This document shows, in pieces, positions 6,843 through 40,808 of a stretch of DNA of 40,808 nt. Where the stretch lies: positions 1 through 40,808 of the IMG/VR virus record IMGVR_UViG_3300032322_001668; one strand, given 5' to 3'. Position 1 is the first letter of the stretch. Each line of letters starts with the position of its first letter. This stretch comes from a virus (lineage: Duplodnaviria; Caudoviricetes). Both the position numbers and the translations under genes were made by a program. The notes under the pieces are model-generated. The model was not told where the DNA came from. It ran no database searches and worked only from the letters and a program-made list of their open reading frames with translations.

Positions 6843-7898
6843 TTACCGAATGCGCCCATCCCGCGTGGCTTCGAAGATCACCTTCTCTTGCCTGTCCTTG
6901 TCCGCCTCGCGACCCCGGTACTTCCCGGCGTTCACGTCGGCGTAGAACTTCGCAATCTGGGCGCGGGTGATGAGGGGCTTCTCAGCGGGGGCAGTAGTCG
7001 CAGCCGCCGACTTAGCTCTGCCGGGTGCCGAGAACTTGTCCAACGAGACCTTGTTCGGGGCCGGTGCGCCGAGGTCTTGCTGGCTCGTCTCGGGAGCCAC
7101 GGCAGCCTCTTCAGCGAGGAAGCCGTCGAAGAAGGCCAGTACACGAGGGCCGTCGTTGCGCTCGTAAGCCGCCTTCAGCAGTTCATGACGAATAACACCA
7201 GAATACGCGTCTGGCAACTTCAACCAGTCGAGGAACCCTTTATCTCGGTTCAACTCGCGCCACTGAGGCATGCGCTCGTCGAGCTGCGAGAACATGCGCG
7301 ATTTCGCGTCCTGCTCCACATAGTTGCCAACGCCCGCCAAACGCTGCTCAAGCTCTCGAATTTTCTTCTCATACTGCCCGATGACGGGAGCCAGTTCCTC
7401 TTTCGCCTTTTTACCGACGACGGCGAGAAACTCGGAGCCGTAGTCCTGCTCTTCCTCGGGCGTAATGAGGCGCTCAGCGAGCGTCTCGGCCGGAGCTGCA
7501 CCTGCCGCCGGCGGCTGCTGCATCGTCGCGATGACGTTCTGAAGCCCGGCGATCTGGTCGGTAAGATAGCGAATCTGATCCTGAGAGCGGTCGAACCGAC
7601 CCTTCATCGACTTGTAGCGATGCTCCCAGCTCTCGTCGTCTTCGCTTACCTTGGAGGTAGACGCCGTCTTCTGCGTCGTCGAGGCGCTCTGCTCACGCTC
7701 GTCGAGCATGTCCTGCGCGGACGTCTCCGGCGAACCGGAGTTCTGCTGCTCAAACTCTTCGCTCTGCTGTTCAGGTTCTTCGGAAGGCTGCTCGGACTGC
7801 AGCTTGAACATTTCCTCCGACCGGGCGGCTGCGGCCAGTACGGCGGGCGGCAGCTTGAGGTTCGGATCGGGGATGGACGTGGGGGTCGGGTTGATCAC
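6843..7898 (-). CDS. capsid scaffolding protein
   Basis: Acidic, coiled-coil protein with WEHRYKSMKGRF and C-terminal EGRI-like end (DGRIR); GTG start at 7898 after AGGAG SD; directly upstream of the capsid gene. Confidence 0.8.
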   Translation of the reverse strand: MINPTPTSIPDPNLKLPPAVLAAAARSEEMFKLQSEQPSEEPEQQSEEFEQQNSGSPETSAQDMLDEREQSASTTQKTASTSKVSEDDESWEHRYKSMKGRFDRSQDQIRYLTDQIAGLQNVIATMQQPPAAGAAPAETLAERLITPEEEQDYGSEFLAVVGKKAKEELAPVIGQYEKKIRELEQRLAGVGNYVEQDAKSRMFSQLDERMPQWRELNRDKGFLDWLKLPDAYSGVIRHELLKAAYERNDGPRVLAFFDGFLAEEAAVAPETSQQDLGAPAPNKVSLDKFSAPGRAKSAAATTAPAEKPLITRAQIAKFYADVNAGKYRGREADKDRQEKVIFEATRDGRIR

Positions 7899-12530: not shown

Positions 12531-13981
12531 TGCCCGCCATCGACTACACCGCCCCGCCGACCTGCGCCGCCTTCATGAAGAGCCAAGCGTTCGGCCGCTT
12601 GATCGGCGGCCCCGTCGGCTCGGGCAAGACCACCGCCTGCCTGTTCGAACTGTTCCGCCGGGCGTGCGAGCAGCAGCCCGCCCCTGACGGCGTGCGCTAC
12701 ACCCGCTTCGCCATCCTGCGGCAGACGCTGAGCCAGCTCAAGATGACGGTGCTCAAGGACATCACGCAGTGGCTGCAGGGCGTGGCTACCTTCAAGGTAT
12801 CCGAGAACACCGTGTACATTGAGATCGGCGACGTGCACTCGGAGTGGGTGCTCATCCCGCTCGAAGACGCCGAGGACCAGCGCAGGCTGCTCTCCTCGCA
12901 GCTCACGGGCGCGTGGATCTCGGAGTGCATCGAGATCGACGTCGGGCTCGTGGCCGCCATCTCCGGCCGCTGCGGCCGGTACCCGTCGGCAGCGCAGGGC
13001 GGCGCGACGTGGTTCGGCGTCATCGCCGACACCAACATGCCGTCCGAGGGCTCGCCGTGGCATAAGTTCATGGCGCTTGAGACCCCGCCGGACTGGCAAA
13101 TCTTCATTCAGCCCTCGGGCCTCTCGGACGAGGCGGAGAATCTTGAGTGGCTGACGCAGACGACCGAGACGCTCAAGCTGCCCGTCGATGACCCCGCGCG
13201 TCGCGCGCAGGGCCGCACGTACTATGAACGTCTGAGCCGCTCCAACGGCGAGGACTGGGTGCGCCGCTACGTGCACGCCGAGTACGGCAACGACCCGTCA
13301 GGCTCGGCGGTATTCCGCGAGACGTTCAAGATGAGCTTCCACGCCGTCGACGAGTTGGAGCCCGTGTACGGCCACCCCATCATCGTGGCGCAGGACTTCG
13401 GCCGCAACCCGTGCGCCATCATCGCGCAGATCGACCACAAGGGCCGTCTGCTGGTTCTGGAGGAACTGGCGACCGAGGACATGGGGCTCGAACTCCACAT
13501 CCAGCGCGCGCTCAAGCCGGCGCTCTCCAGCGAGCGCTATTTCGGCCGCCCGGTGTACATCGTGGGCGACCCGGCGGGCCGTCAGCGCTCGACGAGCTAT
13601 GAGGAGACCAGCTTCGACCTCCTCAAGCGCAACGGCCTGATGGCCTTCCCCGCCCCGACCAACGACATCGACAAGCGCATCCGCGCCGTCGAGGCGTTCC
13701 TACTGTCGCAGCGCGACGGCGGCCCCGCCATCATGTTCGACCGTCGCCGCTGCCCGAAGCTCGTGCAGGCGATGAACGGCCAGTACCGCTACGCAAAGAC
13801 GCGGGGCGGGCAACTGCGTGCCCTGCCCGACAAGAGCCACCCGTGGTCCGACCTTGCCGACGCGCTGCAATACGCCTGCCTCGCGGCGCACGGCGGCTTC
13901 GCCGACTACGTCGCCAACAAGCTCACGCGCCCTCGCGCAAACTCGGAGCGTCGTCGGGTCTCGGCTGCTGCGTGGACGTGA
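12530..13981 (+). CDS. terL: terminase large subunit
   Basis: Walker A GPVGSGKT, DTN coupling motif, RNase H-like QDFG, GDPAG and C-terminal SDLADALQY; start at ATG 12530. Confidence 0.93.
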   Translation: MPAIDYTAPPTCAAFMKSQAFGRLIGGPVGSGKTTACLFELFRRACEQQPAPDGVRYTRFAILRQTLSQLKMTVLKDITQWLQGVATFKVSENTVYIEIGDVHSEWVLIPLEDAEDQRRLLSSQLTGAWISECIEIDVGLVAAISGRCGRYPSAAQGGATWFGVIADTNMPSEGSPWHKFMALETPPDWQIFIQPSGLSDEAENLEWLTQTTETLKLPVDDPARRAQGRTYYERLSRSNGEDWVRRYVHAEYGNDPSGSAVFRETFKMSFHAVDELEPVYGHPIIVAQDFGRNPCAIIAQIDHKGRLLVLEELATEDMGLELHIQRALKPALSSERYFGRPVYIVGDPAGRQRSTSYEETSFDLLKRNGLMAFPAPTNDIDKRIRAVEAFLLSQRDGGPAIMFDRRRCPKLVQAMNGQYRYAKTRGGQLRALPDKSHPWSDLADALQYACLAAHGGFADYVANKLTRPRANSERRRVSAAAWT

Positions 13982-15470: not shown

Positions 15471-15532
15471 TTTGGCACTTTGCCCGCGCCCACCACGCGC
15501 GCCTTCAAACCCCTACCTGAAAGGTAACTCTC

Positions 15533-16246
15533 ATGTCCCGCAAGAACGACACCCGCTTCGCCGACTTCCTCTCCGACACTGTCGATGCGCTCGGCCGCAC
15601 GCAGGGCGAAGGTGAGACGTCGCTGCCTAAGCTCGCCATCGCCGTCGCCCATGCCGCGCGTGACGGATACATCACGTCCGAAAAGCAGGGTGACGCGCCC
15701 GACGCAGCGCACCTGATCTATCAGCGCTATGTCGATGCACGCGCCGCCGCATCGACCGCCTACCGCACCCCGACCGCCGGCGGGTTTTCCGGCAACGTGT
15801 CGAAGCTTCGCGCCTTCGTGAAGCTCGGTGAGAAGGCGAAGATTGATGGCGCATCCGTTCTCGAACGCGCCCGCGAGATCCTCAATGACCTTGTCGATGC
15901 AACGCCGGACGCCAAGCTCAAGTCTCCTTACGCCTACCTTGTCGATGTCGCCCGCCGACAACTCGAAACCGAATACGAGTTGTCGGATGCCGACCTTGGC
16001 GAGATTGCGGCGAAACCCGTGCGTGGCGAGAAGTCCCGCGCTGACAAGCTGCGCGACGCCTTCGATGCGCTCTACGCCATCGCCGAGGATGGGGACGACG
16101 AAGACCGTCTGCAGGACGCCATGGAATTGGTGAAGGGCGAGCTTCACGCCATGGGCGAGCTGACGAGTGTCGAAATCGCCGCCGTCAAGGAACGCAATAA
16201 GACCATGGCGAAGATTGCCGCGCTGCAGGCGAAGCTCGCTGCATGA
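15533..16246 (+). CDS. early hypothetical protein (helical)
   Basis: 237 aa with strong codon bias; motif/SD 6 nt upstream. Confidence 0.8.
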   Translation: MSRKNDTRFADFLSDTVDALGRTQGEGETSLPKLAIAVAHAARDGYITSEKQGDAPDAAHLIYQRYVDARAAASTAYRTPTAGGFSGNVSKLRAFVKLGEKAKIDGASVLERAREILNDLVDATPDAKLKSPYAYLVDVARRQLETEYELSDADLGEIAAKPVRGEKSRADKLRDAFDALYAIAEDGDDEDRLQDAMELVKGELHAMGELTSVEIAAVKERNKTMAKIAALQAKLAA

Positions 16247-16335
16247 CGGCGAGCCTACCCCAAAGGTAACGCACTCATCCTAGTCGCGCGGCACCATCGC
16301 CGCGCGACCTATCCTCTTACCGCAAAGGTAAAACG

Positions 16336-18043: not shown

Positions 18044-18361
18044 ATGCGCCAAGAGAGCAAACTCATCGCTACGGCGTTCATCAAGCGCCGCTCCGCCCGC
18101 GCCGCCCGCACCAGCACCGACGGCCGGGTGGTCTACCTCCACGGTAACCCCATCGCATGGTGGGAGGGCGACGTCCTCTGCCTCACACTGGCGAACTGGC
18201 CGACGGTGACGACGCGCGAGCGCCTCAACGCCATCTGCGAGCTGGTGATGGGCAAGCGTCCGTTCCACCAGAGCAACTACGACCAATACTACGACGACGA
18301 ACCGATCTCCGAGCGCGGCATCATCCGCGTCGAGATCATCCCCGTGGCGCGAGCCGCGTAA
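18044..18361 (+). CDS. early hypothetical protein
   Basis: 105 aa; YLHGNPIA...WPTVTTRERLNA motif. Confidence 0.7.
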   Translation: MRQESKLIATAFIKRRSARAARTSTDGRVVYLHGNPIAWWEGDVLCLTLANWPTVTTRERLNAICELVMGKRPFHQSNYDQYYDDEPISERGIIRVEIIPVARAA

Positions 18362-19617: not shown

Positions 19618-20700
19618 ATGCACTTCACCGCCCTCGCCGCCGAGGCTCCTTCGCTTGTGCGCTCCGGCATCTCCATCGAACTCGTCTCCGCCCCCGGCCG
19701 AGGCAAGTCCCAGTTCGTCCGCCAACTCTACGAGCAGCTCGCTCGTGAGGAGCCGGGCGATTGGGGCTATGCCGAGCTGTTCCTCGCCACGCAGACACCG
19801 CCCGACCTCATCGGTTATCAGTTCAAGGGTGAGGTGGAGTACGACGGCAAGTCCTTCGCCGTCACCGACCCCACCATGCCGAGCTGGTTCATGTGCGAGG
19901 ACGGTCGCCCGGTCTTCGCTTACCCCAGAGGTATTCTGTTCCTCGACGAGTTCGGCCAAGGACAGACCGACGTCAAGGCCGCAGCCGCTGAGCTGATCCT
20001 CAACAAGCGGCTGGGCAAGTGGCGTCTCCCTGACGGGTGGATCGTCATCGCCGCGAGCAATCGCTCCTCCGACCGCTCCGGCGTCACCAAGTCGCTCGAC
20101 TTCGTGATCAACCGCCGCATGGAGATCCACGTCACCGACGATCTGGCGTCGTGGGAGGACTGGGCGAACAAGTACGGCGTGCATCCCGACATCGTCACCT
20201 TCGCCATGCAGAACCCCGAGATCGTGTTCTCGGACGGCGTGCCGGAGAAGCAAGGCCCGTGGTGCACGCCGCGCTCGCTCGTGCTCGCCGAGAAGATGCT
20301 GCGCGCGATCTCGCCCGGCATGGACCTGCGCACCGATCCGAGCGCGCTTGAGTTGACTGCGGGGCTCATCGGCGAGGCGGCAGCCGCGCAGCTCATGGCG
20401 AACCTCAAGCTCGCCGCAGACATGCCGTCCTACGACGAGATCGTGCGCGCCCCCGACGCTACGCCCGTGCCCGACAAGCCTGACGTGCAGATGCTCATCG
20501 CCTACCGCCTCGCCGCCATGGTGCAGGAGAAGGATCTGCAGCCCGTCATCACCTATGTCGGACGCATGGGCATGGAGATGGGGATGCTCTTCGCCAAGGC
20601 GACGACCAAGCGCAAGCCGCTGATGATCAACGCCAAGCCTTTCATGACGTGGTGCATGCAGAACAGCACCATCATGGCCGCCATCGGCAAGCTCAACTAA
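19618..20700 (+). CDS. MoxR-like AAA+ ATPase
   Basis: Walker A APGRGKS, Walker B ILFLDE, sensor AASNR, arginine-finger INRR and TPRS motif. Confidence 0.88.
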   Translation: MHFTALAAEAPSLVRSGISIELVSAPGRGKSQFVRQLYEQLAREEPGDWGYAELFLATQTPPDLIGYQFKGEVEYDGKSFAVTDPTMPSWFMCEDGRPVFAYPRGILFLDEFGQGQTDVKAAAAELILNKRLGKWRLPDGWIVIAASNRSSDRSGVTKSLDFVINRRMEIHVTDDLASWEDWANKYGVHPDIVTFAMQNPEIVFSDGVPEKQGPWCTPRSLVLAEKMLRAISPGMDLRTDPSALELTAGLIGEAAAAQLMANLKLAADMPSYDEIVRAPDATPVPDKPDVQMLIAYRLAAMVQEKDLQPVITYVGRMGMEMGMLFAKATTKRKPLMINAKPFMTWCMQNSTIMAAIGKLN

Positions 20701-28439: not shown

Positions 28440-28466
28440 TCCTTCCCTACCACGGAGGTAACAATC

Positions 28467-28865
28467 ATGAAGGATACAATGCCGGAAGACTTCGATACCA
28501 TCGTCGCGCAGTTCATAAAGCTGCGTGACGCCATGAAGGCGAAGGAGGAGAAGTTCAAGGAGGAGATCGCTCCCGCCAAGGCTTACAAGGAAGCCTTGGA
28601 GAACAAGCTCCTCGAAAAACTCAACGAGATCGGTGGAGACAGCGTCAAGACCGGGCACGGCACGGTCTATCGCACCTCCCGCAAGTCGGCGTCCATCAGC
28701 GACGCCGGCGTGTTCCGCTCCTTCGTTATTGGAGAGGGGAACTACGATCTCGTCGATTGGCGGGCAAACGCAGCCGCTATTGCTGACTTCATCGCCAACA
28801 ACGACACGCCGCCGCCCGGCGTGAACTACTCCGTCAACTACACCGTCGGCGTTCGCCGCGCCTAA
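28467..28865 (+). CDS. hypothetical replication-module protein (coiled coil)
   Basis: IKLRD, SVKT..GTVYR and PPPGVN motifs; motif/SD upstream. Confidence 0.75.
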   Translation: MKDTMPEDFDTIVAQFIKLRDAMKAKEEKFKEEIAPAKAYKEALENKLLEKLNEIGGDSVKTGHGTVYRTSRKSASISDAGVFRSFVIGEGNYDLVDWRANAAAIADFIANNDTPPPGVNYSVNYTVGVRRA

Positions 28866-28882
28866 CCTTCGAGGTAATCCCC

Positions 28883-29902
28883 ATGAGCAATATCGTGATC
28901 CCGAAAAACTTCGGGCAACTCGCCACCGCCTTCTCCGGCGTGCGCGTCGAGGACGACCTGTCGTCCGGCGTCGGCCAGTCGTTCGGCGTCATCAGCTACC
29001 GCGGCAAGGTCTGGGCCGTGAAGTATCAGGGCCAAGAAAGCAAGCTGATGCGCCCCGACGGTGACGGTCCGCGCAACTCCATCGAGGTCGTCATCGTGCG
29101 CAGCGCGAACGTGATCTCGAAGATCTTCTACAACGACGGCTACGTCGAAGGCTCGTCGGCTCCGCCCGACTGCTGGTCCACCAACGGGCAGACGCCCGAC
29201 CCGGCCTCGCCCAAGAAGCAGTCGGCGACCTGCGCGGGGTGCCCGCAGAACGCGTGGGGGTCGAAGATCACCGACGCCGGCAAGCAGGGCAAGGCGTGCG
29301 CCGACAGCAAGCGGCTCGCCGTGGTCCCCGTGGAGGACATCGACAACGAAATGTTCGGCGGCCCCATGCTGCTTCGCGTCCCCGCCGCCTCTCTGAAGGA
29401 TCTGGCGTCGTTCGGTCAGAAGCTGAAGGCCATCGGCTACCCCTACTACGCCGTGGCGACGAGGATCAGCTTCGACCCCGATCAGGCGTACCCGCGCTTC
29501 CAGTTCGGCGCGATTCGCGCGCTCGACGAGGAAGAAGCCGCCAAGATCATGGAGCTGCGCGACGACGAGCGCGTGGCGCGCATCCTCAACGCGGCGGTCG
29601 AGAACGTCACCCACGAGCCGGAGGCGTCGCTGCCGAAGCCCGAGGACGTGTTCGAGCAGCCCCCGCGCAAGACCGCTCCCACCGCTCCCGCCGCTCCTAA
29701 GCCCGCTCCCAAGCCGGCTCCGAAAGCGGTTACCGCAGAGGTAGTGGATGAAGAGACCGGCGAGGTCATGCAGACCCCCATGCCGAAGCCGGCTCCCAAG
29801 AAGGCGGCTCCCCCGCCGCCCGTCGATGACGAGGATGAGGATCAGGCCGCTTCGACCTCCGCTCCGTCCTTCGACGCCATGCTCGATAACCTCCTGAAGT
29901 AA
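28883..29902 (+). CDS. probable ssDNA-binding/annealing protein
   Basis: PDCWS.NG, CAGCPQN.WGS, GKAC...RLAV and LRVPAASL motifs; Pro/Ala/Lys linker and acidic tail; sits between helicase and primase. Confidence 0.7.
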   Translation: MSNIVIPKNFGQLATAFSGVRVEDDLSSGVGQSFGVISYRGKVWAVKYQGQESKLMRPDGDGPRNSIEVVIVRSANVISKIFYNDGYVEGSSAPPDCWSTNGQTPDPASPKKQSATCAGCPQNAWGSKITDAGKQGKACADSKRLAVVPVEDIDNEMFGGPMLLRVPAASLKDLASFGQKLKAIGYPYYAVATRISFDPDQAYPRFQFGAIRALDEEEAAKIMELRDDERVARILNAAVENVTHEPEASLPKPEDVFEQPPRKTAPTAPAAPKPAPKPAPKAVTAEVVDEETGEVMQTPMPKPAPKKAAPPPPVDDEDEDQAASTSAPSFDAMLDNLLK

Positions 29903-29960
29903 AACGCTCGCGCGCCGGGGTTTTCTCCGGCGCGCTCAACCCCCTACCAGAGGTATTGAA

Positions 29961-32918
29961 ATGCGGCACACGCGGGAGTTTCTCGCTCGCGTTCTTCCTT
30001 GGCCCGGTGAGGACGACGGTTACGTCAACATCCACTGGCGCAGCTATGGTCAGAACGGAAAACAATACTGGGGCGGACGCGCAGCGAAGACGGTGGACGA
30101 GGCGGTCCGTCTGCTGAATTGGGCGCAGCGGCAGGAGGGCATCCTCGATCTCTACTGCTGCATGTCCATGCAGTCGAAGGCCGAGCCGAAAGTCTCAAAG
30201 CTCGGCAACAAGTATCTCAACGCCATCCGCTCGCAGCAGAACGCGGTGGCGCTGCGCTCGCTCTATCTCGACATCGACGTCAAGGAGGGTGCCTACACCA
30301 CAACGCAGGACGCCGTTGTCGCGCTCAAGGAGCTGATCGCCGCCCTGTCCCTGCCCATGCCGACCGCCGTGGTGTCCTCCGGCTCCGGCGGGGTGCATGT
30401 GCACTGGGCGCTGGCGGAGCCGATCTTACGCGCCGACTGGCAGCCGCTGGCCGACGCGCTGGCGCGCGCAGCGTCACAACATGGTCTGCACTTCGATCAA
30501 CAGTGCACCATCGACAGCGCGCGCATCCTGCGCATCCCCGGCACGCACAACTATAAGCTCGACCCGCCGGCGGACGTCGCTCTAATGGCGCTGGGCGAGT
30601 ACGTCGAGCTGGACGAGCTGCGGTCTTCTCTTGGTCCTTACATGGTCGCCAAGAGCGAGATCCTCCTGCCGGCGCGCGTCAGCTCCCCCGTTACGGTGAA
30701 CGACGACCTCGCCGCCGGGGTGACGGGCAGCGCTCCGGTGCCGTCCATCGACACGGTGGCGCTCACCTGCGGCTTCGTCCGCACGGCGCTCGACACGGGC
30801 GGCGCGAGCTACTCCAACCCGTTGTGGATGCTCACGACCTATCTCGCAGCCTTCACGGTGGAAGGGCGGGAGGCGGCGCACCGGATGGCGCAAGGACATC
30901 CTACCTACGAGGTAAGCGCCACCGACGCACTCTATGATCGGATGCTCTCCTACAAGGAGCAGTCCGACAGCGGCTGGCCGCGCTGCGAGAAGATCGAGTT
31001 GTCGGGCTGCAGGGACTGCGCGTCCTGCCCGCTGCGGAGCCAGAACAAGTCCCCTTTTCATTTCGCCCTGCCGAAGGCGGCCAATGACGCTCCGGTCGAC
31101 CTTATGCCTTCGGGGTATCACAGGGCGCAAGACGGGCGCGTCTTTCGGATGGTCCCCGACGAGACCGGCGGGGTGACGGCGCGGGAAGTTATGCCCTACC
31201 CCGTCATGGACGGGTGGCTGCAGGAAGACCCGTGGGTTCTTCACTTCACATCCGTCGTGGCGTCGGGGCGGCGCAAAAAGATCGAAGTCCCGCTTGAAGC
31301 CGTCGCCACCAAGGACTCCGTCCTTAAAGCACTCGCACGGCACGGCTTCACGCTTTCGGAAAACGCGGGCAAGGCCGTCAGGGAGTTCATCGTGGCTTGG
31401 GTTCAAAAACTGCAGTCCATCAAGGAAGCGGTCGTTTCCTCCACGCCGTTCGGTTGGACGAGCGCGGCCAACGGTAAGATCGAGGGGTTCACTTACGCCG
31501 GGAAAGTCTACGGCAATGGTTTCGAGCGCCCGGCGGCGCTGCCCGACCCATCACTGGCGATGCTCTACTCCCCCAAGGGCGAGCCGGGGCCGTGGATCGC
31601 GGCGAGCCGCATCATCACCGACCAGAGACGGCCGGGCCTCGACGCCATCCTCGCTGCCTCGTTCGGTGCGCCGCTGGTGCGCTTCACCGGCCAGACCGGC
31701 GTGATGATGAACACCTACAGCCCCGAGAGCGGCATCGGCAAGACGACCACGATGCGCGTCGCTCAGGCGGTGTGGGGCGACCCGGTGCGCTCGATGCAGA
31801 GCCTCAACGACACGCCCAACTCGGTGATCAACAAGATCGGCGAACTTAGGGCGCTGCCGCTGTTCTGGGACGAGCTGAAGACCGAGGCCGATACCAACCG
31901 CTTCGTCGTCATGGCGTTTCAGATCACGCAGGGCAAGGAGCGCTCCCGCCTCAAGCACGACATAACTCAGCGTATGCCGGGGACGTGGCAGACGATGCTG
32001 GTCAGCGCATCCAACGACAGCATCATCGACCCCATCGTGCGGGCGACGCGCTCGACCACGGCGGGCATGTATCGCTGCTTCGAGTACGCCGTCACCAAGG
32101 GCATCGACGGGCAGATCGAGACGGGCGTCGTCAGCCGCGCCGTGGGCTTGCTCAACGACAACTTCGGGCACGCCGGCGTCGAGTACTCGAAGTTTCTCGG
32201 CGAGCAGCACGAGCGCATCGCTCGCGAGGTGGCGCAGATCCAAGACGACATTACCCGCGAGGTAAATGCAGGCAACGACGAGCGCTTCTGGATCGCCGTG
32301 GTTGCGGTGGTCATGGCCGGAGCGCGATACGCCAACGAGCTGGGGCTCACCGAGATCGACGAGGCGGCGCTGCGTGTGCACATGCTCGAAGTCCTCACGA
32401 AGATGCGGGACGAGGTGCGCTCCACGCCGACCGATATGTCCAACACGATCAGCGTGTCGAACGTACTGGCTCAGTTTCTCAAGACGATGCGCGCCCGCCA
32501 CACGCTGGTGACGGACCGTGTCCATGTCGGTCGCGGTAAGCCGTCGACCAAGAACCCGATCAAGGTTCTTAACGACGTGTCGAAGCTCGACACGATCCAC
32601 GTCCATGTCGGCCGCGACAGCGGACTGATGCGAATCAGCTCCACGTATTTCTCCGACTGGATGGCGGAGCACGGCTATTCCCGCCACGCGTTTACGCGGG
32701 CGCTCAAGGAAGAGTTCGGGGTTCACGAGACCTACGGGCGCATCGGGTCGGGGACCGACTTCTCCTCGCCTACCGAATACATTCTCGAAATCAATCTGTT
32801 CGAGCCCAAACTCAAACAGCTTCTCGGAGACTTTGAAGATGAGCGCGACGCTCAGACCCTCGAAAGCGGTGAAGGAGTGCCTGTCGATGGCCCGGCTGGA
32901 GGGACTGACGTTTCTTAA
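29961..32918 (+). CDS. primase-helicase (AEP/RepB-like primase plus DUF927-type helicase)
   Basis: LYLDID, SGSGGVHVHW and RILRIPGT.N primase motifs; C..C..CP cluster; Walker A SGIGKTT and WDE. Confidence 0.88.
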   Translation: MRHTREFLARVLPWPGEDDGYVNIHWRSYGQNGKQYWGGRAAKTVDEAVRLLNWAQRQEGILDLYCCMSMQSKAEPKVSKLGNKYLNAIRSQQNAVALRSLYLDIDVKEGAYTTTQDAVVALKELIAALSLPMPTAVVSSGSGGVHVHWALAEPILRADWQPLADALARAASQHGLHFDQQCTIDSARILRIPGTHNYKLDPPADVALMALGEYVELDELRSSLGPYMVAKSEILLPARVSSPVTVNDDLAAGVTGSAPVPSIDTVALTCGFVRTALDTGGASYSNPLWMLTTYLAAFTVEGREAAHRMAQGHPTYEVSATDALYDRMLSYKEQSDSGWPRCEKIELSGCRDCASCPLRSQNKSPFHFALPKAANDAPVDLMPSGYHRAQDGRVFRMVPDETGGVTAREVMPYPVMDGWLQEDPWVLHFTSVVASGRRKKIEVPLEAVATKDSVLKALARHGFTLSENAGKAVREFIVAWVQKLQSIKEAVVSSTPFGWTSAANGKIEGFTYAGKVYGNGFERPAALPDPSLAMLYSPKGEPGPWIAASRIITDQRRPGLDAILAASFGAPLVRFTGQTGVMMNTYSPESGIGKTTTMRVAQAVWGDPVRSMQSLNDTPNSVINKIGELRALPLFWDELKTEADTNRFVVMAFQITQGKERSRLKHDITQRMPGTWQTMLVSASNDSIIDPIVRATRSTTAGMYRCFEYAVTKGIDGQIETGVVSRAVGLLNDNFGHAGVEYSKFLGEQHERIAREVAQIQDDITREVNAGNDERFWIAVVAVVMAGARYANELGLTEIDEAALRVHMLEVLTKMRDEVRSTPTDMSNTISVSNVLAQFLKTMRARHTLVTDRVHVGRGKPSTKNPIKVLNDVSKLDTIHVHVGRDSGLMRISSTYFSDWMAEHGYSRHAFTRALKEEFGVHETYGRIGSGTDFSSPTEYILEINLFEPKLKQLLGDFEDERDAQTLESGEGVPVDGPAGGTDVS

Positions 32919-33099
32919 TCTTCACGACGGGGGCAAGCACTTTCGACTGGAGTTCGCGGACGAGCGCGGACGTGTCCTCCAGATGATCGCCACCAAGTCG
33001 TCGGACATGAACCGGCGACACATGAATAACGCCCGAGCGCAGATCCGACGCTTCGCTCGTGGTTATGACCACGGACTTATCGTTACCAAGAAGGTATGA
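32839..33099 (+). CDS. hypothetical protein overlapping the primase C-terminus
   Basis: GGAG SD before ATG 32839; GGKHFRL...SSD....NNAR..IRR motif; 80-nt overlap with the primase gene. Confidence 0.55.
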   Translation: MSATLRPSKAVKECLSMARLEGLTFLNLHDGGKHFRLEFADERGRVLQMIATKSSDMNRRHMNNARAQIRRFARGYDHGLIVTKKV

Positions 33100-33103
33100 G
33101 GCC

Positions 33104-33475
33104 ATGCACCATCAAGACGTTCTGTCGACCGCCAAGTCGATCATCACCCAGCGCGGCAAGGAATACGGCGACGTCATGCCGAGCTTCGTTCGTGCCGCCA
33201 ACATCGCGGGCAATATCTTGGACCGCAAGGTCACGGCGTTCGACGTCGCCGTCATCATGATGGCGGTGAAGATGTCGCGGCTCGCCAACCAGCGCGAACA
33301 CGAAGATAGCTGGATCGACCTGTGCGCTTACGTCGCCTTCGCCGCTCAGTTCGCTTCGCCGCACACGTCCGATTTCCAAGAGGTCGCCAACGCCACCATC
33401 GAAGCCGACATCACCGAGATCGCCCGAAAGTTCAGCGCGCAGGCGCGCGAGCAGGCTGGAGAAGGAACGCGCTGA
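33104..33475 (+). CDS. DUF6378-like (nucleotide pyrophosphohydrolase-like) protein
   Basis: QRGKEYG...F, DVA..M..VK.SR and H.DSW.D...Y motifs. Confidence 0.75.
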   Translation: MHHQDVLSTAKSIITQRGKEYGDVMPSFVRAANIAGNILDRKVTAFDVAVIMMAVKMSRLANQREHEDSWIDLCAYVAFAAQFASPHTSDFQEVANATIEADITEIARKFSAQAREQAGEGTR

Positions 33476-33705
33476 TGCCCTACACGATGAACATCTGGCG
33501 TGAGTTGAAACGCCGTCGAGCCGCCAAGCGGGCTGAGCGCGAGCGCATCGCGCTCTTCACCGCAGGCGAGAACCTCTGGCGGTCTGAGATCGAGCGGCTG
33601 CGTGCTGCGCTGCTGGAGATCGCAAATTACGCGCCGCGCGTCAGTCAGCGAGAACTCGACCATGTGCGCGGCGTGGCGCGTGCTGCGATCAAGGAGGAGA
33701 AGTGA
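33475..33705 (+). CDS. hypothetical protein
   Basis: TGATG coupling; EIERLRAAL motif. Confidence 0.6.
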   Translation: MPYTMNIWRELKRRRAAKRAERERIALFTAGENLWRSEIERLRAALLEIANYAPRVSQRELDHVRGVARAAIKEEK

Positions 33706-33923
33706 TGAGCGGTCGCTGCGATGAGCAAGACGATCTGGCCCTCGTCTACATGTGGGCGCGGAAAGACCTGCTCGACGAAATCGAACGGCTGCGCGAGGCT
33801 CTGAAATACCTTTTGTCCGAGGTCGAGAGGTCGTCGGCCGATGTCGACCCGTGTGCAGTACGCGATTCGCGTACTGCCCTGCGTCAGGCGGTGGACTTCG
33901 AAGACAGGTGGGATAATGCGTGA
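33705..33923 (+). CDS. hypothetical protein
   Basis: GGAGG SD; EIERLREAL motif. Confidence 0.6.
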   Translation: MSGRCDEQDDLALVYMWARKDLLDEIERLREALKYLLSEVERSSADVDPCAVRDSRTALRQAVDFEDRWDNA

Positions 33924-34140
33924 TCTGGAGATCGTCATGGTGGAGGACGGTGGAACGGAGCGCGTACTGACGCGCACGGTTCCCAACAAATACAGTAAAC
34001 GCTGGAAGCACGTTCGCACTGTCGCTGCAGCGGCTATCGGAACTCCGCTGGAAGAGGCTATCGACAACCCCCACGGACTTACCTTCGCGGTACGTAGTCC
34101 ACGCAGCGGTGACGTAGTCGGCGTGCGGGAGAGAGCGTGA
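33916..34140 (+). CDS. hypothetical protein
   Basis: 74 aa from ATG 33916; last gene of the rightward arm. Confidence 0.55.
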   Translation: MRDLEIVMVEDGGTERVLTRTVPNKYSKRWKHVRTVAAAAIGTPLEEAIDNPHGLTFAVRSPRSGDVVGVRERA

Positions 34141-34152
34141 CGAGGCACGCTC

Positions 34153-35097
34153 TCAGTAAACGGGCTTGCCTCTGAATATCGGACGGCCTCTCACCATTTC
34201 GCAGAACTCGGGCGGAAGCATTTTGCCGTCCTCGTCGAAGGTCAGCACGACAAAACCTTCATGCGCGCGACTCGGAGCGCCTTCGTGGTACTCGAAGGCT
34301 TGAGAGCGGGGGTCGCCGAGCATCCCCGCCTCCACGCCCCAGTGCGTGCCGTTGCGATTGCGAACCGCCGTCATCTGGAGTTGGTGGGTGTGCCCCGTGA
34401 TGAGGGAGATGCCGGCGTGCAGAGCGTTGTTCCAGCCGGCGTGAATACCGCCCCTGAACCTATGACGCACTTCGACATCGCCGAACGTGGCGGCGTAGCA
34501 GTAGTCCCACTGCGGGAAACGTGCTTCGAGGCGTCCGGCGTATGTATCCATCTCCGGCGCGTTCGCGGAGAGATAGTTGTTGACCCGCATGTCGTGGTTG
34601 CCGACGGGCCATACCTGTTTTTTGGTGCGGGGCAACATCCGCAGCGCGTCATGTAAGGCGTCGATTTCTTCATCGATCTTGGGGGCCTTGGCCCCAAGCA
34701 GCGCACCGTGCCGGGATACGCGCGCTCCGTCGAGCATGTCGCCGTTCAGCACGATGGCGTAGGGGCGTATTTTGTGCGCCACCGCGCAGAACGCTTTCCA
34801 CATCAGCGGCACCTCGCCGGGCCAGATATGGAGATCGCCGCCCACCATCACGCAGGCGTCAGCGATGTCGTACCCTATCATCTGTGGCAGGGTCCAACCC
34901 GGCGTCACTTTCTGGGGGTGTTGCAAGTCGTTGTCGAACAGCTCAGGGAACTTCTTGCGAGCCGTTGCTATCTGGTCTTTGACGGTGGAAGCGCTTAACC
35001 CCAAGGACCGGGCCAACGCCGCGGCGCTGCTGCCTACCTGATTGTATTGGCGTATGCGCTCGCGAAGTAGTTCGTCAGACAGAGGGGGAAGTGGCAT
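34153..35097 (-). CDS. HTH-fused calcineurin-like metallophosphoesterase
   Basis: GDLH, LNGD, GNHD, RH and GHTH metal-binding motifs; N-terminal AALARSLGLSASTVK helix-turn-helix. Confidence 0.88.
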   Translation of the reverse strand: MPLPPLSDELLRERIRQYNQVGSSAAALARSLGLSASTVKDQIATARKKFPELFDNDLQHPQKVTPGWTLPQMIGYDIADACVMVGGDLHIWPGEVPLMWKAFCAVAHKIRPYAIVLNGDMLDGARVSRHGALLGAKAPKIDEEIDALHDALRMLPRTKKQVWPVGNHDMRVNNYLSANAPEMDTYAGRLEARFPQWDYCYAATFGDVEVRHRFRGGIHAGWNNALHAGISLITGHTHQLQMTAVRNRNGTHWGVEAGMLGDPRSQAFEYHEGAPSRAHEGFVVLTFDEDGKMLPPEFCEMVRGRPIFRGKPVY

Positions 35098-35143
35098 TGT
35101 ACACCTTGATACGCACCCATGCTTGATCTACCTCAGAAGTAAG

Positions 35144-35402: not shown

Positions 35403-38400
35403 TCACCTCACGTTGTAGATCGACCCGGCCTCGCGGACACGGCGGGCCTCTTCCTCGTTGCCGAAGCGGAAGCCGCTGTCGGTCAGCCCCTTGGCGCGGT
35501 CGCGCTGGTAGCGCTTGGCGAACTCTTTGAGCTTGGCGGGCGTCAGGCGCTCGTCTTCCGGCAGGCGGAGGTTGAGCTGCTTCAGCTCGTTGAGGATCTT
35601 CACGCGCTCGCCTTCCGTCCGCGCCTCGGCGAAGCGGTTCTTGATCCGCGTGACCTCTCGCCCGCGCTGGATCTCGTCGCCGCGAGCGTTGTACATCGCC
35701 GACTGACGCTCCGTCTGCTCCGCCTGACGCGCCGTGCGCAAGCCCAAGACGTTGAGCGCCGCAGTGCCGACGCCGATGGGCTCCGCCGTCTGCTTTCCGG
35801 TCGCGCCCGACGTCTTGCCGAACGTCACCTCGCGACCAGCCTTGATGCTGTCGGAGATGAACTTGGGCAGCGGCAGACGTTCGAACGCCTTGAACACGTC
35901 CTCCGACGACGCCTTGCCCGTCGCCGCATCCGCGAAGCCGCGTGCCGACTGCACCGCATCGAACACGAGACCGGCGGGAGCGCCGGCGAGCGTGGTGAAC
36001 GTCCAAGCCAGAGCGCCATCCTTCTCGTACTTGCGCGGCTCGCCGAAGGTCAGGAGGTTGTCGGCCCCCAGTCGGCTCGACAAGTCGATGCCGAAGCTGC
36101 GCGGGATGACGCCACGCGTGAGCAACTCCGCTGCGTCGTTGCCGAAGGTCTCCGCCATGGTGCGGCGCACCAAGCGCTCCCAGTCGTCGTAGCCGCCACC
36201 GAAGCCGAGCGCAGCAGCCGCCATCGCACCGAGCTTGATGACCTCCATGCCGGGGATGCCGAGCATGCCCGCCATCATGACGTGCATACCCATGAGGTAA
36301 GCGAGCTGCTTCTGCGCGACGCGCCGCTCCGCAGGGTCCGCGTCCTTGAAGGAGCGGTAGAGCATGTCGCCGAGCAGGGCGTACATGAGCTGCGCGTACT
36401 TCTTGAACTGCAGCGCGAGTCGGCCGAGCGGGTGGTTGAAGATCTGCGGAGCGTTGACCGCCGAGTAGTCGCCCTGCGTGTTCATCACCACGTCGAAGGC
36501 GTAGGCGCTCGCGTCCGCGTCCGACATGCCGCCGGCCTTGGCGAGGCGGTAAGCGGCGACGGCCGACACCGAGCGGTTGACGGCTTCCACCGCGATGGGG
36601 AGCTGACGGGCGATGCGGTCGAAGCGCGCCAGCGTCCTGCCCGTCGGCCCCATGCCCTGCGAGACAGACTGCGCCAGCTCAAAGCCCGCGCCGGGGTCGA
36701 TAGCGCCGCGCGACTCCATCATATCGAGCAACTGCAGCAGCGCCCGGCCGTCGGGCTGGCCGGCGAGCTTCGCCTTCAGCGAGCCGAGCACGTCCTCGGA
36801 GTTGAGGATCGCGGCCTTGGAGAAGCTCTGCGCCGCCCGCACGGTGTTGAGGATGCCCGCCCCCAGCGTATCGGTGATCCCGATGTCGCGGTAGGCGCGC
36901 GTCAGGGCGGCCGATGCCGACGTGATACCGTACCGACCGGAGAGCACCGGCAGCGTGTTCATCGCCACCTGCATGGAGTTCACGAAGGAGTAGGCGGGCG
37001 AGAACAGCTTGTCGAGGAACGACAGCGCCAAGAGGTTGTGGACGATGGGAGACGGCTCCGTCGGCGACACGATGTTGCTTTCGAAGCGCGCTTCCAGTTC
37101 GTTGAGGATCTGGTTGCGGGTGCCCTCGTCGCCGTCGTAGTTGCCCTTCTGCAACGCCCGCATGCGGCCCATCGCGTCACGCAGTGTCGGGCCGTATTCG
37201 ATCTTGCCGAGATAGCGCGACGCGGCCTCGGCGTACTGCAGGGTGTTGCGCGCCATGTCGGTCGACGCGCCGCGCACGTTGCGCCGGGTGATCGAGCGCT
37301 GCTGGATGCGGTTGCCCGCCATCAGGCGCAGCGCCGCCTCGTTGATCACCGAGCGAAGCTGGGTGCGCTTGGCTTCGTTCTTCTCGCCGGGGAAGCGGGA
37401 GTCGATGGAACTCATGATCGACGCGAGCTGGCCCGACGTGAGGTCGCCCATCGACTGTGCGTCGGCGCGATCCATAACGCCCGACACCTCGGCATAACCC
37501 GACGCGCGGGCCTCCTTCACGAACTCTGCAGCTTCCGCATAGCTGTCGAAAAAGTGTACGCCCTTGGTCTGCACCGTGACGCGGGTGGCGTAGTCGGTCG
37601 CCGTCGCCTCGTCGATGCGCCGAAAATCGGTGACGATGGACGCATCGTCGCGAAGCTGCGAGGCGAACGCTTTCGCCATGCGGTCGGCTTCGGCCTTGGT
37701 GGCGGCGCGGAACTCGACGACGCCCGGCTCGACGAGCCTACCGCCCATCAGGTTCTTGATGGCGTCGGTGGTGCGCACCACGAACTGCCCCTGACGCATC
37801 AGCGGGAAGTAGACGCCCTCGATGGCGCGGACTTCGCGCGCCTTTTTCAGCGCGTTGAAGATCGTCGGACCGAGCGTCTCCCGGTCCTTTGTCTCGTCGA
37901 GCGTGCCCGTCATCACGCGGTTGACGAGTTCGTCACGCGCCGCGCCGGTGAGGTTTACCTCTGCGGTATCGAGGATGTTCTCGACGAGGCCGCGAGTGAT
38001 CTCGTTCTGCGTGTCGCGGTAGTACTTCGTCATGTCCTTCCAAAGCGCGAGCGCTTCGGGGTCCGACATGATCGAGGAGAACTCCGACTGCATCGACGGC
38101 AGAAACGCCTTCGCCTGCCAGCCGAACCAAGCGTTCTTGCCGAGATGCTTGTTGTCGGCGTTGGGGCCGAGATTGACGTTCAGCATGGTGGCGCGGATGG
38201 CAAGGCGCGAGAAGCGCTCCGCACGCGCCGGGTCGCGGTCGGCGAAGTTCATGAAGCGCTGCGCGAGCTTCTCACCCACCTCGCGCTTCTTGTTGGCGAA
38301 GGGCGTCACCTTCTGCAGCGCGGTGACGAAGTCCTGCAGCGCGTCACCCTCGGCGTCGACGAACAGCCCCTTGAACTGCTGGCGGAGCTGGTCCGTCGTC

Positions 38401-40808
38401 ATGAGCTTGATCATGTTGCGACGCAGATTGAAGAACGCGCTCTCGCCACGCCCCCGCACCCGGTCCACCGCCTGATCGACGGCAGCGCGCGAGATGAATT
38501 GCGGCATTGCGGTGGCGGTCTGGCGCTGACTCGCCGCCATGCGACGGTTCAGCTCGCTCAGCGCCATGGTCTCCTCGCCCACGCGCATGACGGCTTCGAG
38601 CGCGGAGAAGGAGTTCTTGGGCAGGTTCAAGAGCCTGCGCACGACATCGACGATGGCCTGCCACGCCGACACGCGCCCACGCTGGAGACCGAGATCGCTG
38701 GCGAGGTCTTCGCTGATCTCCACCGTCCCAAGGAAGTCTTGGAACTGAGCGTTGGAGAAGGCTTCGGCGATGAACTCGGCGACATCGTTGCCCTCGAAGG
38801 CGTATCCGCCGGCGTTCTTGTTGATCGCCTCACGGCCTACCGCATATTCGACCTCCTTCATGATCCGGTCGAGCTGGTAGGCGAAGCCCGTCTTGTACTT
38901 CAAGAGGTTGCCGCTGCTCCTGATTTCGCGCGACGTCGCCGCGTGCACGGCCTCGTGCATCACGATATGGGCGAGAGCGCGGGGGTTCTGCAGCGCAGCA
39001 TCCGAGATCGCGATGAAGTCGCGGCTGTCGGGGTAGTAGACGCCGAGCGCGCCACCCTTGGTGAGCAGGCGCATGTCGGCGTCGGGCACGATATGGATTT
39101 CGAGATCCGGCACGATCTCCCTGACGCGCTTGCGGATGAAGGTCATCAGCGCGCGCGGCATCGGGGGCATCGTGGAGAAGTCGAGCGTGTCGAGAACGTC
39201 CTTGAGCGCGCGGGTGCTTCGGGGCGTAGAGAAGAAGCTCTGGCCCGCGCCCGTCGTCAGGATGACGTCGTTGGCGATGCCGGCGGCCTCGGCCGTGGCC
39301 GTTACCTGCGCGGTAAGCTCTTCCTCAGACACGAGGTCGAACTGCGTCAGATCGAGATCCTCGTCCGGTGCGAAAGTCGGGTCGACCTGCTCGTAGCTCG
39401 CCGGGACGGCGGAGCGCGCCATGGGGAAGAGCTGTTCCTCCCCGCGCGCGGGGTTGAACATCGTGGAGATCTGCTCGGGCTCGAAGACGGCATAGATGAC
39501 GTCCTGCGGGCCACCATCGAAGGTGTTGAGGAAGATTACGCCGTCACGGCCTTCACGTTTCGCCTGCCGGATGGCGTCGTAATATTTGACCTCGCGATAG
39601 CTCTCGCCCTTCTGGTCGATGACCAGCGGGTTCTTCAGGAAGATGCGCCCGAGGAACAGGTTCGGCGTGGCCGGATCGTTGCGTTCGAGAACCTCGACGA
39701 TGGCGTCGAAAAAGTCGTCTATGCTGCCGTCAAGGACCGAATGACGGTCTTTGTAGCGGGCGACCAAGGCGTCGAAGAGGTTCTTTTCGGCGACCGAAAG
39801 CCCCTCCATGCGGTCGCGGACCCATTTTACGGCATCCGTCGCTCCGCCCAGATTACCGAAATCCGCAAAATTGCCGATAGTCTGTTTCAGATACCGTTCC
39901 TCCGGCCGTCCGCGACGTCCGCCACGGGCGTAGGTGTTCGAGGTAGCCGGATTGCGGGCGAAGAAGAACGCCTCCTTGGCGGATGGAGCCCCGGTGTAGG
40001 AACCGAGGAACGCCTTTGCGAAGGCTTTAATCTCGTCAACGGTGCCGTGGAACACGTCCGCTACGGTCGGCTTGCCGGTCTCGTAGCGCAGCGCCGCACG
40101 CTCGCCGACCATGCGGACATGATCCTCGACGACGTCGGACACCATCTTGGTCAGCGCGTCGCGCGCCTCCGGCCGCAGGTCGGAGCGCATCTCGGTATTG
40201 CTCGCGAAATGAGACCGCACTTGGAAAGCGGTCTTGATCGCGCCGTCGAGCGCCCTGATCTGATTCTTGATGTCGGCGCGTACCGACGCGAACTGCAGGC
40301 CGACAAGATCGTCGGCATAGTCGCGCAGGAAGTCGTCGAGGGCGTCGGCGAGCCGGGTGCGTCCAGTCTGCTCCAGCTCCGTTGACGGCTTGATGTCGTC
40401 GTACAAGCGGGAGAGCGCCTTGTCGACCTTCGGGTCGGGTGCTCCATAGCCGTCATTGATGCGGCTGAACGCGTCGAAAAATCGGATCGCGTTGCGACTC
40501 TCGGAGAAGCGATAGACCTGCATCAGCTTCCGAAGCTCGGTGCCGAGCGCGCCTTCGACATTGGCGAAGGTCTCTTGAAGCTCGACGAGAAGGTTCGGGT
40601 TGACGACCCCGGCCCTGAGATCGAGTTCGCGCCCCTGCCAGCCGTCGAAAATCACGTTTGGGTCGTTCGCCAACACAATGTCGAGTGACGGGTCGGCGAC
40701 GGACGCCTTAGTCAATTCCGCCATACGGGCGCGGAAGCCCTCGATGTCGAAGACGCCGTCGTCGTTCTGCGCCGCCGCCGTCATGAAGTTCGGCGCTTCC
40801 AGTCCTTC
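35403..40808 (-). CDS. giant polyvalent internal virion/ejection protein (5' truncated, more than 1800 aa)
   Basis: Frame is open to the window edge. Contains an ART-like domain (VFHGT...FFF...YA...KNPL...DG.I..N...VF.PEQI), an HExxH metallopeptidase (HEAVH...EFIAEAFSN..FQ), a PLxRFG-like YFPLMRQG motif and a hydrophobic C-terminal domain. Confidence 0.85.
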   Translation of the reverse strand, partial: EGLEAPNFMTAAAQNDDGVFDIEGFRARMAELTKASVADPSLDIVLANDPNVIFDGWQGRELDLRAGVVNPNLLVELQETFANVEGALGTELRKLMQVYRFSESRNAIRFFDAFSRINDGYGAPDPKVDKALSRLYDDIKPSTELEQTGRTRLADALDDFLRDYADDLVGLQFASVRADIKNQIRALDGAIKTAFQVRSHFASNTEMRSDLRPEARDALTKMVSDVVEDHVRMVGERAALRYETGKPTVADVFHGTVDEIKAFAKAFLGSYTGAPSAKEAFFFARNPATSNTYARGGRRGRPEERYLKQTIGNFADFGNLGGATDAVKWVRDRMEGLSVAEKNLFDALVARYKDRHSVLDGSIDDFFDAIVEVLERNDPATPNLFLGRIFLKNPLVIDQKGESYREVKYYDAIRQAKREGRDGVIFLNTFDGGPQDVIYAVFEPEQISTMFNPARGEEQLFPMARSAVPASYEQVDPTFAPDEDLDLTQFDLVSEEELTAQVTATAEAAGIANDVILTTGAGQSFFSTPRSTRALKDVLDTLDFSTMPPMPRALMTFIRKRVREIVPDLEIHIVPDADMRLLTKGGALGVYYPDSRDFIAISDAALQNPRALAHIVMHEAVHAATSREIRSSGNLLKYKTGFAYQLDRIMKEVEYAVGREAINKNAGGYAFEGNDVAEFIAEAFSNAQFQDFLGTVEISEDLASDLGLQRGRVSAWQAIVDVVRRLLNLPKNSFSALEAVMRVGEETMALSELNRRMAASQRQTATAMPQFISRAAVDQAVDRVRGRGESAFFNLRRNMIKLMTTDQLRQQFKGLFVDAEGDALQDFVTALQKVTPFANKKREVGEKLAQRFMNFADRDPARAERFSRLAIRATMLNVNLGPNADNKHLGKNAWFGWQAKAFLPSMQSEFSSIMSDPEALALWKDMTKYYRDTQNEITRGLVENILDTAEVNLTGAARDELVNRVMTGTLDETKDRETLGPTIFNALKKAREVRAIEGVYFPLMRQGQFVVRTTDAIKNLMGGRLVEPGVVEFRAATKAEADRMAKAFASQLRDDASIVTDFRRIDEATATDYATRVTVQTKGVHFFDSYAEAAEFVKEARASGYAEVSGVMDRADAQSMGDLTSGQLASIMSSIDSRFPGEKNEAKRTQLRSVINEAALRLMAGNRIQQRSITRRNVRGASTDMARNTLQYAEAASRYLGKIEYGPTLRDAMGRMRALQKGNYDGDEGTRNQILNELEARFESNIVSPTEPSPIVHNLLALSFLDKLFSPAYSFVNSMQVAMNTLPVLSGRYGITSASAALTRAYRDIGITDTLGAGILNTVRAAQSFSKAAILNSEDVLGSLKAKLAGQPDGRALLQLLDMMESRGAIDPGAGFELAQSVSQGMGPTGRTLARFDRIARQLPIAVEAVNRSVSAVAAYRLAKAGGMSDADASAYAFDVVMNTQGDYSAVNAPQIFNHPLGRLALQFKKYAQLMYALLGDMLYRSFKDADPAERRVAQKQLAYLMGMHVMMAGMLGIPGMEVIKLGAMAAAALGFGGGYDDWERLVRRTMAETFGNDAAELLTRGVIPRSFGIDLSSRLGADNLLTFGEPRKYEKDGALAWTFTTLAGAPAGLVFDAVQSARGFADAATGKASSEDVFKAFERLPLPKFISDSIKAGREVTFGKTSGATGKQTAEPIGVGTAALNVLGLRTARQAEQTERQSAMYNARGDEIQRGREVTRIKNRFAEARTEGERVKILNELKQLNLRLPEDERLTPAKLKEFAKRYQRDRAKGLTDSGFRFGNEEEARRVREAGSIYNVR

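Follow-up and report, generated by a model that had tools for sequence, protein, structure and literature searches.

The window and its palindromic array

The window analysed here is the whole 40,808-nucleotide stretch of IMG/VR record IMGVR_UViG_3300032322_001668, a tailed phage of the Caudoviricetes, and it carries a dispersed array of the palindrome TACC-N5-GGTA. The window is a partial podovirus-type genome of ~60 kb and covers about two thirds of it (67% complete). Its genes include those for portal, capsid, terminase, AAA/vWA proteins, family A DNA polymerase (PolA), an SNF2-like helicase, a primase-like protein and a giant polyvalent protein. The phage is related to Rhizobium phage RHph_TM29, and the only close relatives in culture are the four members of the RHph_TM29 group, Rhizobium phages that are almost identical to one another.

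Thirty-nine exact copies of TACC-N5-GGTA were found in the 40.8 kb, compared with 0.05 expected from dinucleotide shuffles. The site is a perfect dyad with the consensus tTACCtCnGaGGTAa. Spacers of 0–15 bases other than 5 between TACC and GGTA yielded at most one copy each, and a six-base spacer, with 1 copy only, was ruled out for the window. Generic palindrome formation was also ruled out, as TACC with the 5-base spacer was alone extreme (138-fold). By location, 15 copies were deep in genes, 18 were 3–12 bases before a called start and 6 were elsewhere, including the one at 34080. A ribosome-binding site was overlapped or abutted by 18 of the 39 sites, and 18 of the 39 were packed into 6.8 kb.

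In-gene sites and codon usage

The original prediction listed sixteen copies that were said to be embedded in essential coding sequences by means of rare codons. They are as follows.

7647..7659, in the putative scaffold gene (6843-7898, - strand), frame 2
12787..12799, in the terminase large subunit gene (12530-13981, + strand), frame 2
18134..18146, in a small early gene (18035-18361, PF23790-like), frame 0
19921..19933, in the AAA ATPase gene (19618-20700), frame 0, TAC CCC AGA GGT ATT
21188..21200, in the DUF2201/vWA-like gene (20997-22304), frame 2
21537..21549, second site in the vWA-like gene (20997-22304), frame 0
24115..24127, in the PolA gene, frame 1, with the rare codons ATA and AGG
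27225..27237, in the SNF2-like helicase gene
27489..27501, second site in the SNF2-like helicase gene, in a conserved DELAxYRNG stretch
29731..29743, in the gene at the single-stranded DNA-binding protein (SSB) position (28883-29902), variable C-terminal part
30902..30914, in the primase/helicase-like gene (29961-32918)
32252..32264, second site in the primase/helicase-like gene (29961-32918)
34080..34092, in a small unclassified open reading frame (ORF) of 74 aa (33916-34140, + strand), where the two arms converge
36287..36299, in the giant polyvalent protein gene (35403-40784, - strand), frame 0
37956..37968, in the giant polyvalent protein gene (35403-40784, - strand), frame 2
39303..39315, in the giant polyvalent protein gene (35403-40784, - strand), frame 2

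Each of the sixteen positions starts an exact TACC-N5-GGTA. Fifteen are deep in called genes, as had been claimed, but the site at 34080 lies only in the 74-aa ORF, which had no credible family match. The word "essential" was too strong for this ORF and for the small early gene at 18134, and the names "scaffold" and "SSB-like" are positional guesses, with both proteins recorded as of unknown function in PHROGs. The codons singled out as rare are rare indeed, with relative synonymous codon usage of 0.02 for AGA, 0.02 for ATA, 0.05 for AGG and 0.05 for GTA. The claimed preference for A/T-ending codons was also borne out (33 of the 73 codons in sites vs. 18% in the background), as was the use of different frames (6, 1 and 8 in-gene sites in frames 0, 1 and 2, respectively) and of both coding strands (11 sites in + strand genes and 4 in - strand genes). 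The PolA site at 24115 is inside a peptide conserved among relatives, and four relatives possess a site in the same alignment column as the helicase site at 27225.

Codon shuffling, which had been proposed as a check, did not reproduce the 15 in-gene sites: 0.8–0.9 were expected. The mean was 0.88 (maximum 4, n = 1000) for within-gene synonymous shuffles and 0.77 (maximum 4, n = 1000) for genome-wide codon resampling, and these codon nulls rule out chance or codon bias as the source of the array. The proteins of the window contain 41 positions able to encode a site, of which 15 are used, including 6 of 7 Y-x-x-G positions. None of the 9 encodable positions in the tail-fibre region carries a site.

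Arrays in related phages and in host genomes

The clade set comprised 23 clade records and RHph_TM29; other matches (e.g., G012, G013, G017, and G019) were not taken whole. All 24 clade relatives scanned possessed a strongly enriched palindrome, each with its own variant. The commonest form was (G)TTACC-N5/N6-GGTAA(C), and the variants included TTACT (G007, G025, and G032), TACG-N7 (G016), ACTAT-N2 (G005) and TTGATCC-N2 (G041). Within one genome, spacer lengths ranged from 5 to 7 bp. Each of the 16 genomes tested had one or more spacer classes with more in-gene copies than any of 100 synonymous shuffles produced, an excess that was absent from 3 of the 23 pattern rows. With weight matrices, from which G010 was left out after failed seeding, 495 of 1094 clade sites (45%) were in genes. 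The relatives carried 24–64 sites per genome at densities of 0.4–1.6 per kb, and in-gene sites occurred at 0.73/kb in replication genes and at 0.33/kb in late ones.

Outside the clade, G018 and G020 possessed 8–10 mostly intergenic palindromes. These are long and stand mostly between early genes, around the first early gene, which encodes 183 or 213 aa (G020, L140:4532-10700; G018, L134:13810-16520). No TAC-type array was found in G042, G044 or 50 of the 61 kb of phage Rollin. G042 and G044 (L181-L187), which have terminase/capsid-type genes alone in common with the clade, contained CCGG-N5-CCGG in 36 and 24 copies, respectively, vs. 5–6 expected.

Of the 53 TTAC-N8-GTAA copies in bacterial genome G574, 45 lie inside a clade prophage of 57 kb, and the 14 kb of host DNA past its end contain none. 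Thus, the array ends at the prophage border. This prophage (G574:C1:2324237-2381593) is seemingly complete, lies in the bacterial chromosome and represents a natural lysogen. Scans of GTDB contigs with TerL gave no matches or distant ones only. No motif enrichment was found in the order to which a Bosea metagenome-assembled genome belongs: each of 81 genomes from it had 0–16 copies, mostly below the reversed control. A host regulon was rejected on these counts, which cover the Bosea order.

Selection on the DNA and on spacing of the sites

The original prediction also proposed that selection acts on the DNA site rather than on the protein or the ribosome-binding site. Our results agree with this proposal on four grounds, which are the codon shuffles, synonymous conservation in a close pair of genomes, the absence of a G-U bias and the gap-filling spacing of the sites. 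The synonymous comparison rests on the close pair G002/G003, as none of the relatives found is close to the window. In this pair, 17 of 18 in-gene sites were retained. A/T third positions were retained at 24 of 24 places in half-sites vs. 30 of 69 in flanks (Fisher 1e-7, positions not independent) and, in the reverse direction, at 25 of 31 vs. 31 of 85. The synonymous positions are thus constrained in this pair.

Few sites were common to more distant genomes. The window had 0–1 of 9–12 sites in common with each of three relatives, and more distant pairs had 0–2 of 4–12 in common. In core alignments, 66 of 146 sites shared a column, many of them through the close pair G002/G003. Therefore, site positions turn over while density is kept.

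The sites were also spaced more evenly than expected by chance. The nearest-neighbour distance of 213 in-gene sites was 1019 bp, compared with 630 bp for local random placement with the intergenic sites fixed (z = 5.9). Gap filling was detectable in the window alone (P = 0.0055) and in 5 of 16 genomes at P < 0.05 (3-kb window), and the adjacent-gap ratio was 0.525 compared with 0.386 expected. Global evenness measured by the maximum gap was not significant for the window (P = 0.92), because site density is graded. The suggestion that the sites might be spaced loading sites fits the data. Elongation roadblocks, the other role suggested, are plausible, though the promoter and lifestyle comparisons (see below) lent them no support.

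On the sense strand of genes, G-U pairs (83) were not favoured over A-C pairs (70), and gene starts showed the reverse trend (40 G-U vs. 69). Because G-U pairs are not favoured, the selected signal is double-stranded DNA, and an RNA hairpin was rejected as its basis. Taken together, the array is real, clade-wide, phage-specific in sequence and under selection at the level of DNA.

E2, a candidate binding protein

The gene that we call E2, its flanking sites and the remaining sites of the window are listed below.

15533..16246, + strand, E2, 237 aa, all-helical, of an unnamed family, with an N-terminal domain (~1-160) and a C-terminal helical bundle (~165-237)
15514..15526, site over the E2 ribosome-binding site
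16256..16268, site 9 bases past the E2 stop codon
14539..20782, dense early cluster of 18 sites, most of which overlap the Shine-Dalgarno sequence of a small early gene
22305..33096, gene-start or intergenic sites at 22305, 25131, 25527, 25822, 28448 and 33084
5782..5794, site between the major capsid gene and the next structural gene
23352..35141, three identical 13-mers with one mismatch, at 23352, 26524 and 35129

Of 25 records, 22 had E2, as did all 16 near-complete genomes; the three records without E2 also lacked the early region. A site was found ≤150 bp upstream of E2 in 19 of 22 cases, ≤130 bp downstream in 18 and on both sides in 17. This bracketing was the highest among 23 families, followed by that of AAA (11 of 21). 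The E2 family comprised 912 clusters at 50% identity and had no sequence match in Pfam, PHROGs, NCBIfam or PDB. The model of its N-terminal domain was of high quality (predicted local distance difference test score, pLDDT, 96; predicted template modelling score, pTM, 0.90) and gave no convincing structural match, the best being an unrelated protein with Z 6.5 over 84 residues. Fold searches recovered two uncharacterised homologues only from a viral library and unnamed viral clusters only from the Atlas. An integrase core-binding fold, suggested by eye, found no support, with no such row among the top 50 for the N-terminal model. A conserved helix with the pattern K-x-[NQ]-x-S-K-L-R combines basic and polar residues.

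A lone homologue of the E2 N-terminal domain was found in bacterial genome G442 (L230:1483-1944, - strand, G442:C26; hhalign 95.4%, E 1.8e-8). It is flanked by host genes, with aconitase/DUF559 on one side and DsrE on the other, and no clade phage gene was found within 36 kb. The start of this gene carries the sole TTAC-N8-GTAA of the 3.8-Mb genome, in which the reversed control occurs 22 times. Judged from sequence, this lone domain with its own site is the strongest apparent link of E2 to the palindromes, and the gene is possibly a captured phage repressor. No further lone E2 domains were found in metagenomes or plasmids; a match in G420 was a broken remnant.

A second E2 paralogue that consists of the N-terminal domain only is located near the full gene in G574 (L235:1378-1914 and 2589-3386) and in G009 (L108:4731-5144), and sites precede it. 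It is possibly a Cro-like or dominant-negative partner. A polar word of the GCGCACTCA type recurs in the E2 flanks of G002, G003, G008 and G009; the window has a single 8-base match (16270). A terminator followed E2 in 6 of 22 cases; it is not diagnostic, as capsid and scaffold genes had one about as often (5 of 24).

Several other candidate binders were rejected. The window's only XRE/HTH_3-type regulator (18446-18907) is patchy in distribution, as HTH_3 proteins occurred in 4 of 25 genomes. The HTH_17 gene at 14036-14266 and g41 (22322-23053), the latter without a PDB sequence match, were also patchy. Because the XRE/HTH_3 regulator is not clade-wide, E2 is the likelier binder, and the sequence comparisons make it probable that E2 is the protein that binds the sites.

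Other features of the window and its relatives

The site after the capsid gene, which adjoins a GC-rich hairpin in the window (5782-5820), was found in 16 of 24 genomes. A weak sigma70-like match has the site at 25131 between its hexamers, and the three identical one-mismatch 13-mers are a possible class of weaker sites. Two AT-rich non-coding stretches with G and C runs (14268-14530 and 15240-15480) lie ahead of the early region and are likely a control or origin region. Contigs of run X1, possibly the source sample, reproduced positions 14000-33900 of the window. The main contigs differed from it at two places, including the free centre base of the site at 14923.

The giant polyvalent protein (35403-40784) has 1793 aa with ART-PolyVal and LPD39-like domains. 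Its homologues have ~2200–2900 aa, and the contig therefore probably cuts its start. In RHph_TM29, EVB31_075 (L081:31228-34311) is annotated as a putative integrase, yet it is homologous to the primase/helicase-like protein of the window; no PF00589 match was found in the RHph_TM29 genome. An integrase was present in 10 of 25 genomes, and ParA together with a resolvase in 1 of 25. In 8 temperate members, the 96 proteins encoded from terL to E2 included no CI-type repressor and gave just weak HTH_17-type matches.

Comparison with known phage arrays

Dispersed arrays are already known from other phages; what is new here is a candidate DNA-binding family for such an array. Among the closest are those of the Cluster O mycobacteriophages, such as Corndog, for which 34 17-bp dyad repeats are described, 11 of them clearly in genes, without an explained function and proposed as dimer-binding sites (PMC4351075). 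Similar to those repeats, the sites of this study number in the dozens, have invariant arms, are located in genes in about one third of cases, lack an orientation bias and are denser in one arm. Different from Cluster O, however, are the sequence and the phage lineage, the temperate nature of many clade members and the existence of a candidate binder. Moreover, the Cluster O repeats are described from five close genomes with mostly shared positions, whereas the 25 divergent genomes of this study showed motif drift, turnover, gap filling and synonymous constraint.

The Cluster A mycobacteriophages L5, Bxb1 and TipsytheTRex are described as having 20–30 phage-specific stoperators of 13–14 bp across the genome, most of them off promoters (PMC6550527, PMC9283540), and a repressor-stoperator system as in Cluster A is described for Streptomyces phage R4 (PMC10276819). 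Similar to Cluster A as described there, the sites here are many, dispersed and phage-specific (39 in 40.8 kb; 24–64 per genome in the relatives), are found near a candidate repressor gene and diverge in motif among relatives. The stoperators of Cluster A are reported to be asymmetric, oriented with transcription, mostly in short intergenic regions and bound by a monomeric helix-turn-helix (HTH) protein (PMC6550527, PMC9283540), and their reversal is reported to abolish blocking (PMC9283540). Because of this asymmetry, orientation and monomeric binding, the array would at most work like Cluster A stoperators and not be a member of that system. In addition, 45% of the clade sites are in genes, and E2 is without a detectable HTH, whereas the Cluster A repressor combines an HTH with a Stoperator domain and, once bound, stops elongating transcription.

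Salmonella phage epsilon15 (AY150271) contains 13 TACC-N5-GGTA in 39.7 kb, dispersed, 7 of which are annotated repressor sites. The TTACC-N5-GGTAA-type dyad is the same in core geometry, with tTACCtCnGaGGTAa in the window and ATTACC-N5-GGTAAT in epsilon15. The epsilon15 sites, however, have ATTACC arms and AT-rich spacers and are nearly all intergenic, whereas 15 of 39 window sites are deep in genes and 495 of 1094 clade sites are in genes. The 198-aa epsilon15 repressor and its halves gave no match at E ≤ 1 by phmmer against six-frame ORFs of all fetched genomes, and the E2 profile found nothing in epsilon15. Our literature search found no primary paper on epsilon15/SPC32H or phiC31 operators.

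SroF of SPbeta-like phages, a master repressor without a CI-type HTH that is described as a monomer with an integrase-like fold and a 26-bp AT-rich box (bioRxiv 10.1101/2025.11.27.690993), is a precedent for phage repressors not of CI type; different from SroF, E2 gave no integrase-type match. Operator control of the lambda CI/XRE kind was not matched by the data, given the few genomes with HTH_3 and the scarcity of sites in promoters (see below).

Possible functions of the array

Our preferred explanation, which we judge to have slightly less than even odds, is a palindromic stoperator-like silencing array bound by E2. E2 would dock on the palindromes and bind as a pair, a dimer being suggested by the symmetry of the sites only. 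On gene starts it would silence the genome, and at gap-filling sites in long genes it would block read-through transcription. The role would be that of an immunity repressor in lysogens or of early shut-off in lytic growth. New in-gene sites would arise where synonymous codons can spell the site without altering the protein and no other site is close by, which would account for a steady density despite the turnover of positions. The high density of the early region may partly result from the right half-site overlapping the Shine-Dalgarno sequence and thus being cheap to evolve; the G005 motif is unlike Shine-Dalgarno, yet its sites cluster around E2 and the early genes.

A number of results weigh against silencing by E2. 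Sites were not enriched in intergenic sigma70-like promoters (2 of 23 vs. 3.8 expected), a weak test, since the consensus may suit alphaproteobacterial promoters poorly, and the 8 genomes that encode integrase or ParA resembled the 8 that encode neither in array density (P = 0.23). Fold searches detected no known DNA-binding fold in E2, and the full-length protein is usually acidic. The lone G442 gene has 51% GC compared with ~65% in its host, so that its site, a single case, could have hitch-hiked in a recent transfer. Across 20 families and 18 genomes (G010 left out), the partial correlation of motif distance with E2 distance was 0.25 (P = 0.07), lower than those of the capsid protein (0.40, P = 0.014), vWA (0.29) and portal (0.26). 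The arrays of G018 and G020 occur without detectable E2, and homology of E2 with their first early genes was not detected. L001, a 14-kb fragment with the closest helicase (66%), had zero TACC sites and just 3 TAAC-N7-GTTA. Finally, the orientation needed in Cluster A is at odds with symmetric sites.

Because neither the promoter test nor the lifestyle test supported silencing, an architectural array bound by E2 is a serious rival, even if we regard it as rather unlikely. Its evenly spaced sites would be nucleation points that coat, loop, compact or shield the DNA at entry, replication or segregation, with repression as a side effect at gene starts. The MatP/matS and Noc/SlmA systems, in which arrays of sites organise the nucleoid through spreading, bridging or occlusion by the bound protein, are the model, and the spacing statistics are compatible with arrays of this type. 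Gap-filling spacing with turnover, symmetric sites, the lack of promoter enrichment and of a lifestyle effect, and the continuation of sites through late genes at 0.33/kb all suit this explanation, for which the C-terminal helical bundle of E2 could oligomerise. Density, however, is strongly graded, both between replication and late genes and in the crowding of 18 of 39 window sites into 6.8 kb; the E2 gene is bracketed as autoregulated genes are; the lone bacterial E2 domain keeps a single site at its own start; and the sites of G018 and G020 are mostly between early genes. A different binder is improbable: a virion or ejected protein, g41, a winged-helix-like ORF near 25224 or an HTH gene. 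The capsid protein had the highest partial correlation with motif distance and is often followed by a site, and the internal virion genes fall outside the window. Nevertheless, besides the rarity of HTH_3, only 13 of 27 records had the HTH_17 family, 10 the winged-helix family and 16 had g41, g41 was undetected in the complete, array-bearing G005, G007 and G041, and the site beside the lone E2 domain stands without any of these genes.

It is very improbable that the sites are self-marks or serve as substrates of the phage's nuclease, nickase or recombination machinery (HNH, VRR-NUC) instead of binding a repressor. Most records (25 of 27) had an HNH-like gene, the even spacing would suit a mark with a protective role, and recombination between similar repeats is described for Cluster O phages (PMC4351075). 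Against this, sites are placed at ribosome-binding sites and around E2, their 5–7 bp spacers vary within one genome, HNH distance does not track motif distance, and the run X1 contigs showed no joints at sites, although this is a weak test. Still harder to credit is a role at the RNA level, with hairpins that either mask Shine-Dalgarno sequences or recruit an RNA regulator, or a role as binding sites for a host transcription factor. The 18 window sites that overlap or abut a ribosome-binding site and the frequent TCGGA spacer of the early region speak for these. In genes, however, the spacer was TCGGA-like on the sense strand in just 2 of 15 sites (2 sense, 5 antisense and 8 ties), half-sites were invariant instead of co-varying, and G-U pairs were not preferred in genes and showed the reverse at gene starts. 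A host factor is opposed by the low copy numbers in the host-order genomes and by motifs that differ between phages.

Implications

Dispersed arrays such as that of Cluster O have been left unexplained for want of a binder. A broader proposal, which we put forward as a doubtful one, is that the E2 family, with a new all-helical DNA-binding fold, tiles the phage genome through palindromes selected for spacing rather than position and rewrites synonymous codons of core genes, as a phage chromatin that silences or shields the genome, and that some bacteria captured the domain together with its operator, perhaps as a repressor directed against phages. Our literature search of open-access main texts turned up no publication about RHph_TM29 or this array, so the original RHph description may mention repeats. 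The cultured Rhizobium phage RHph_TM29 possesses both the array and the candidate binder, and a transcriptional roadblock can thus be tested directly against a genome coat. In the polymerase, helicase and terminase genes, codon choice is shaped by the spacing of the sites. If binding by E2 is true, these phages would provide a novel DNA-binding family whose specificity variants occur in nature, and the silence of temperate phages without a CI-type repressor would be explained.

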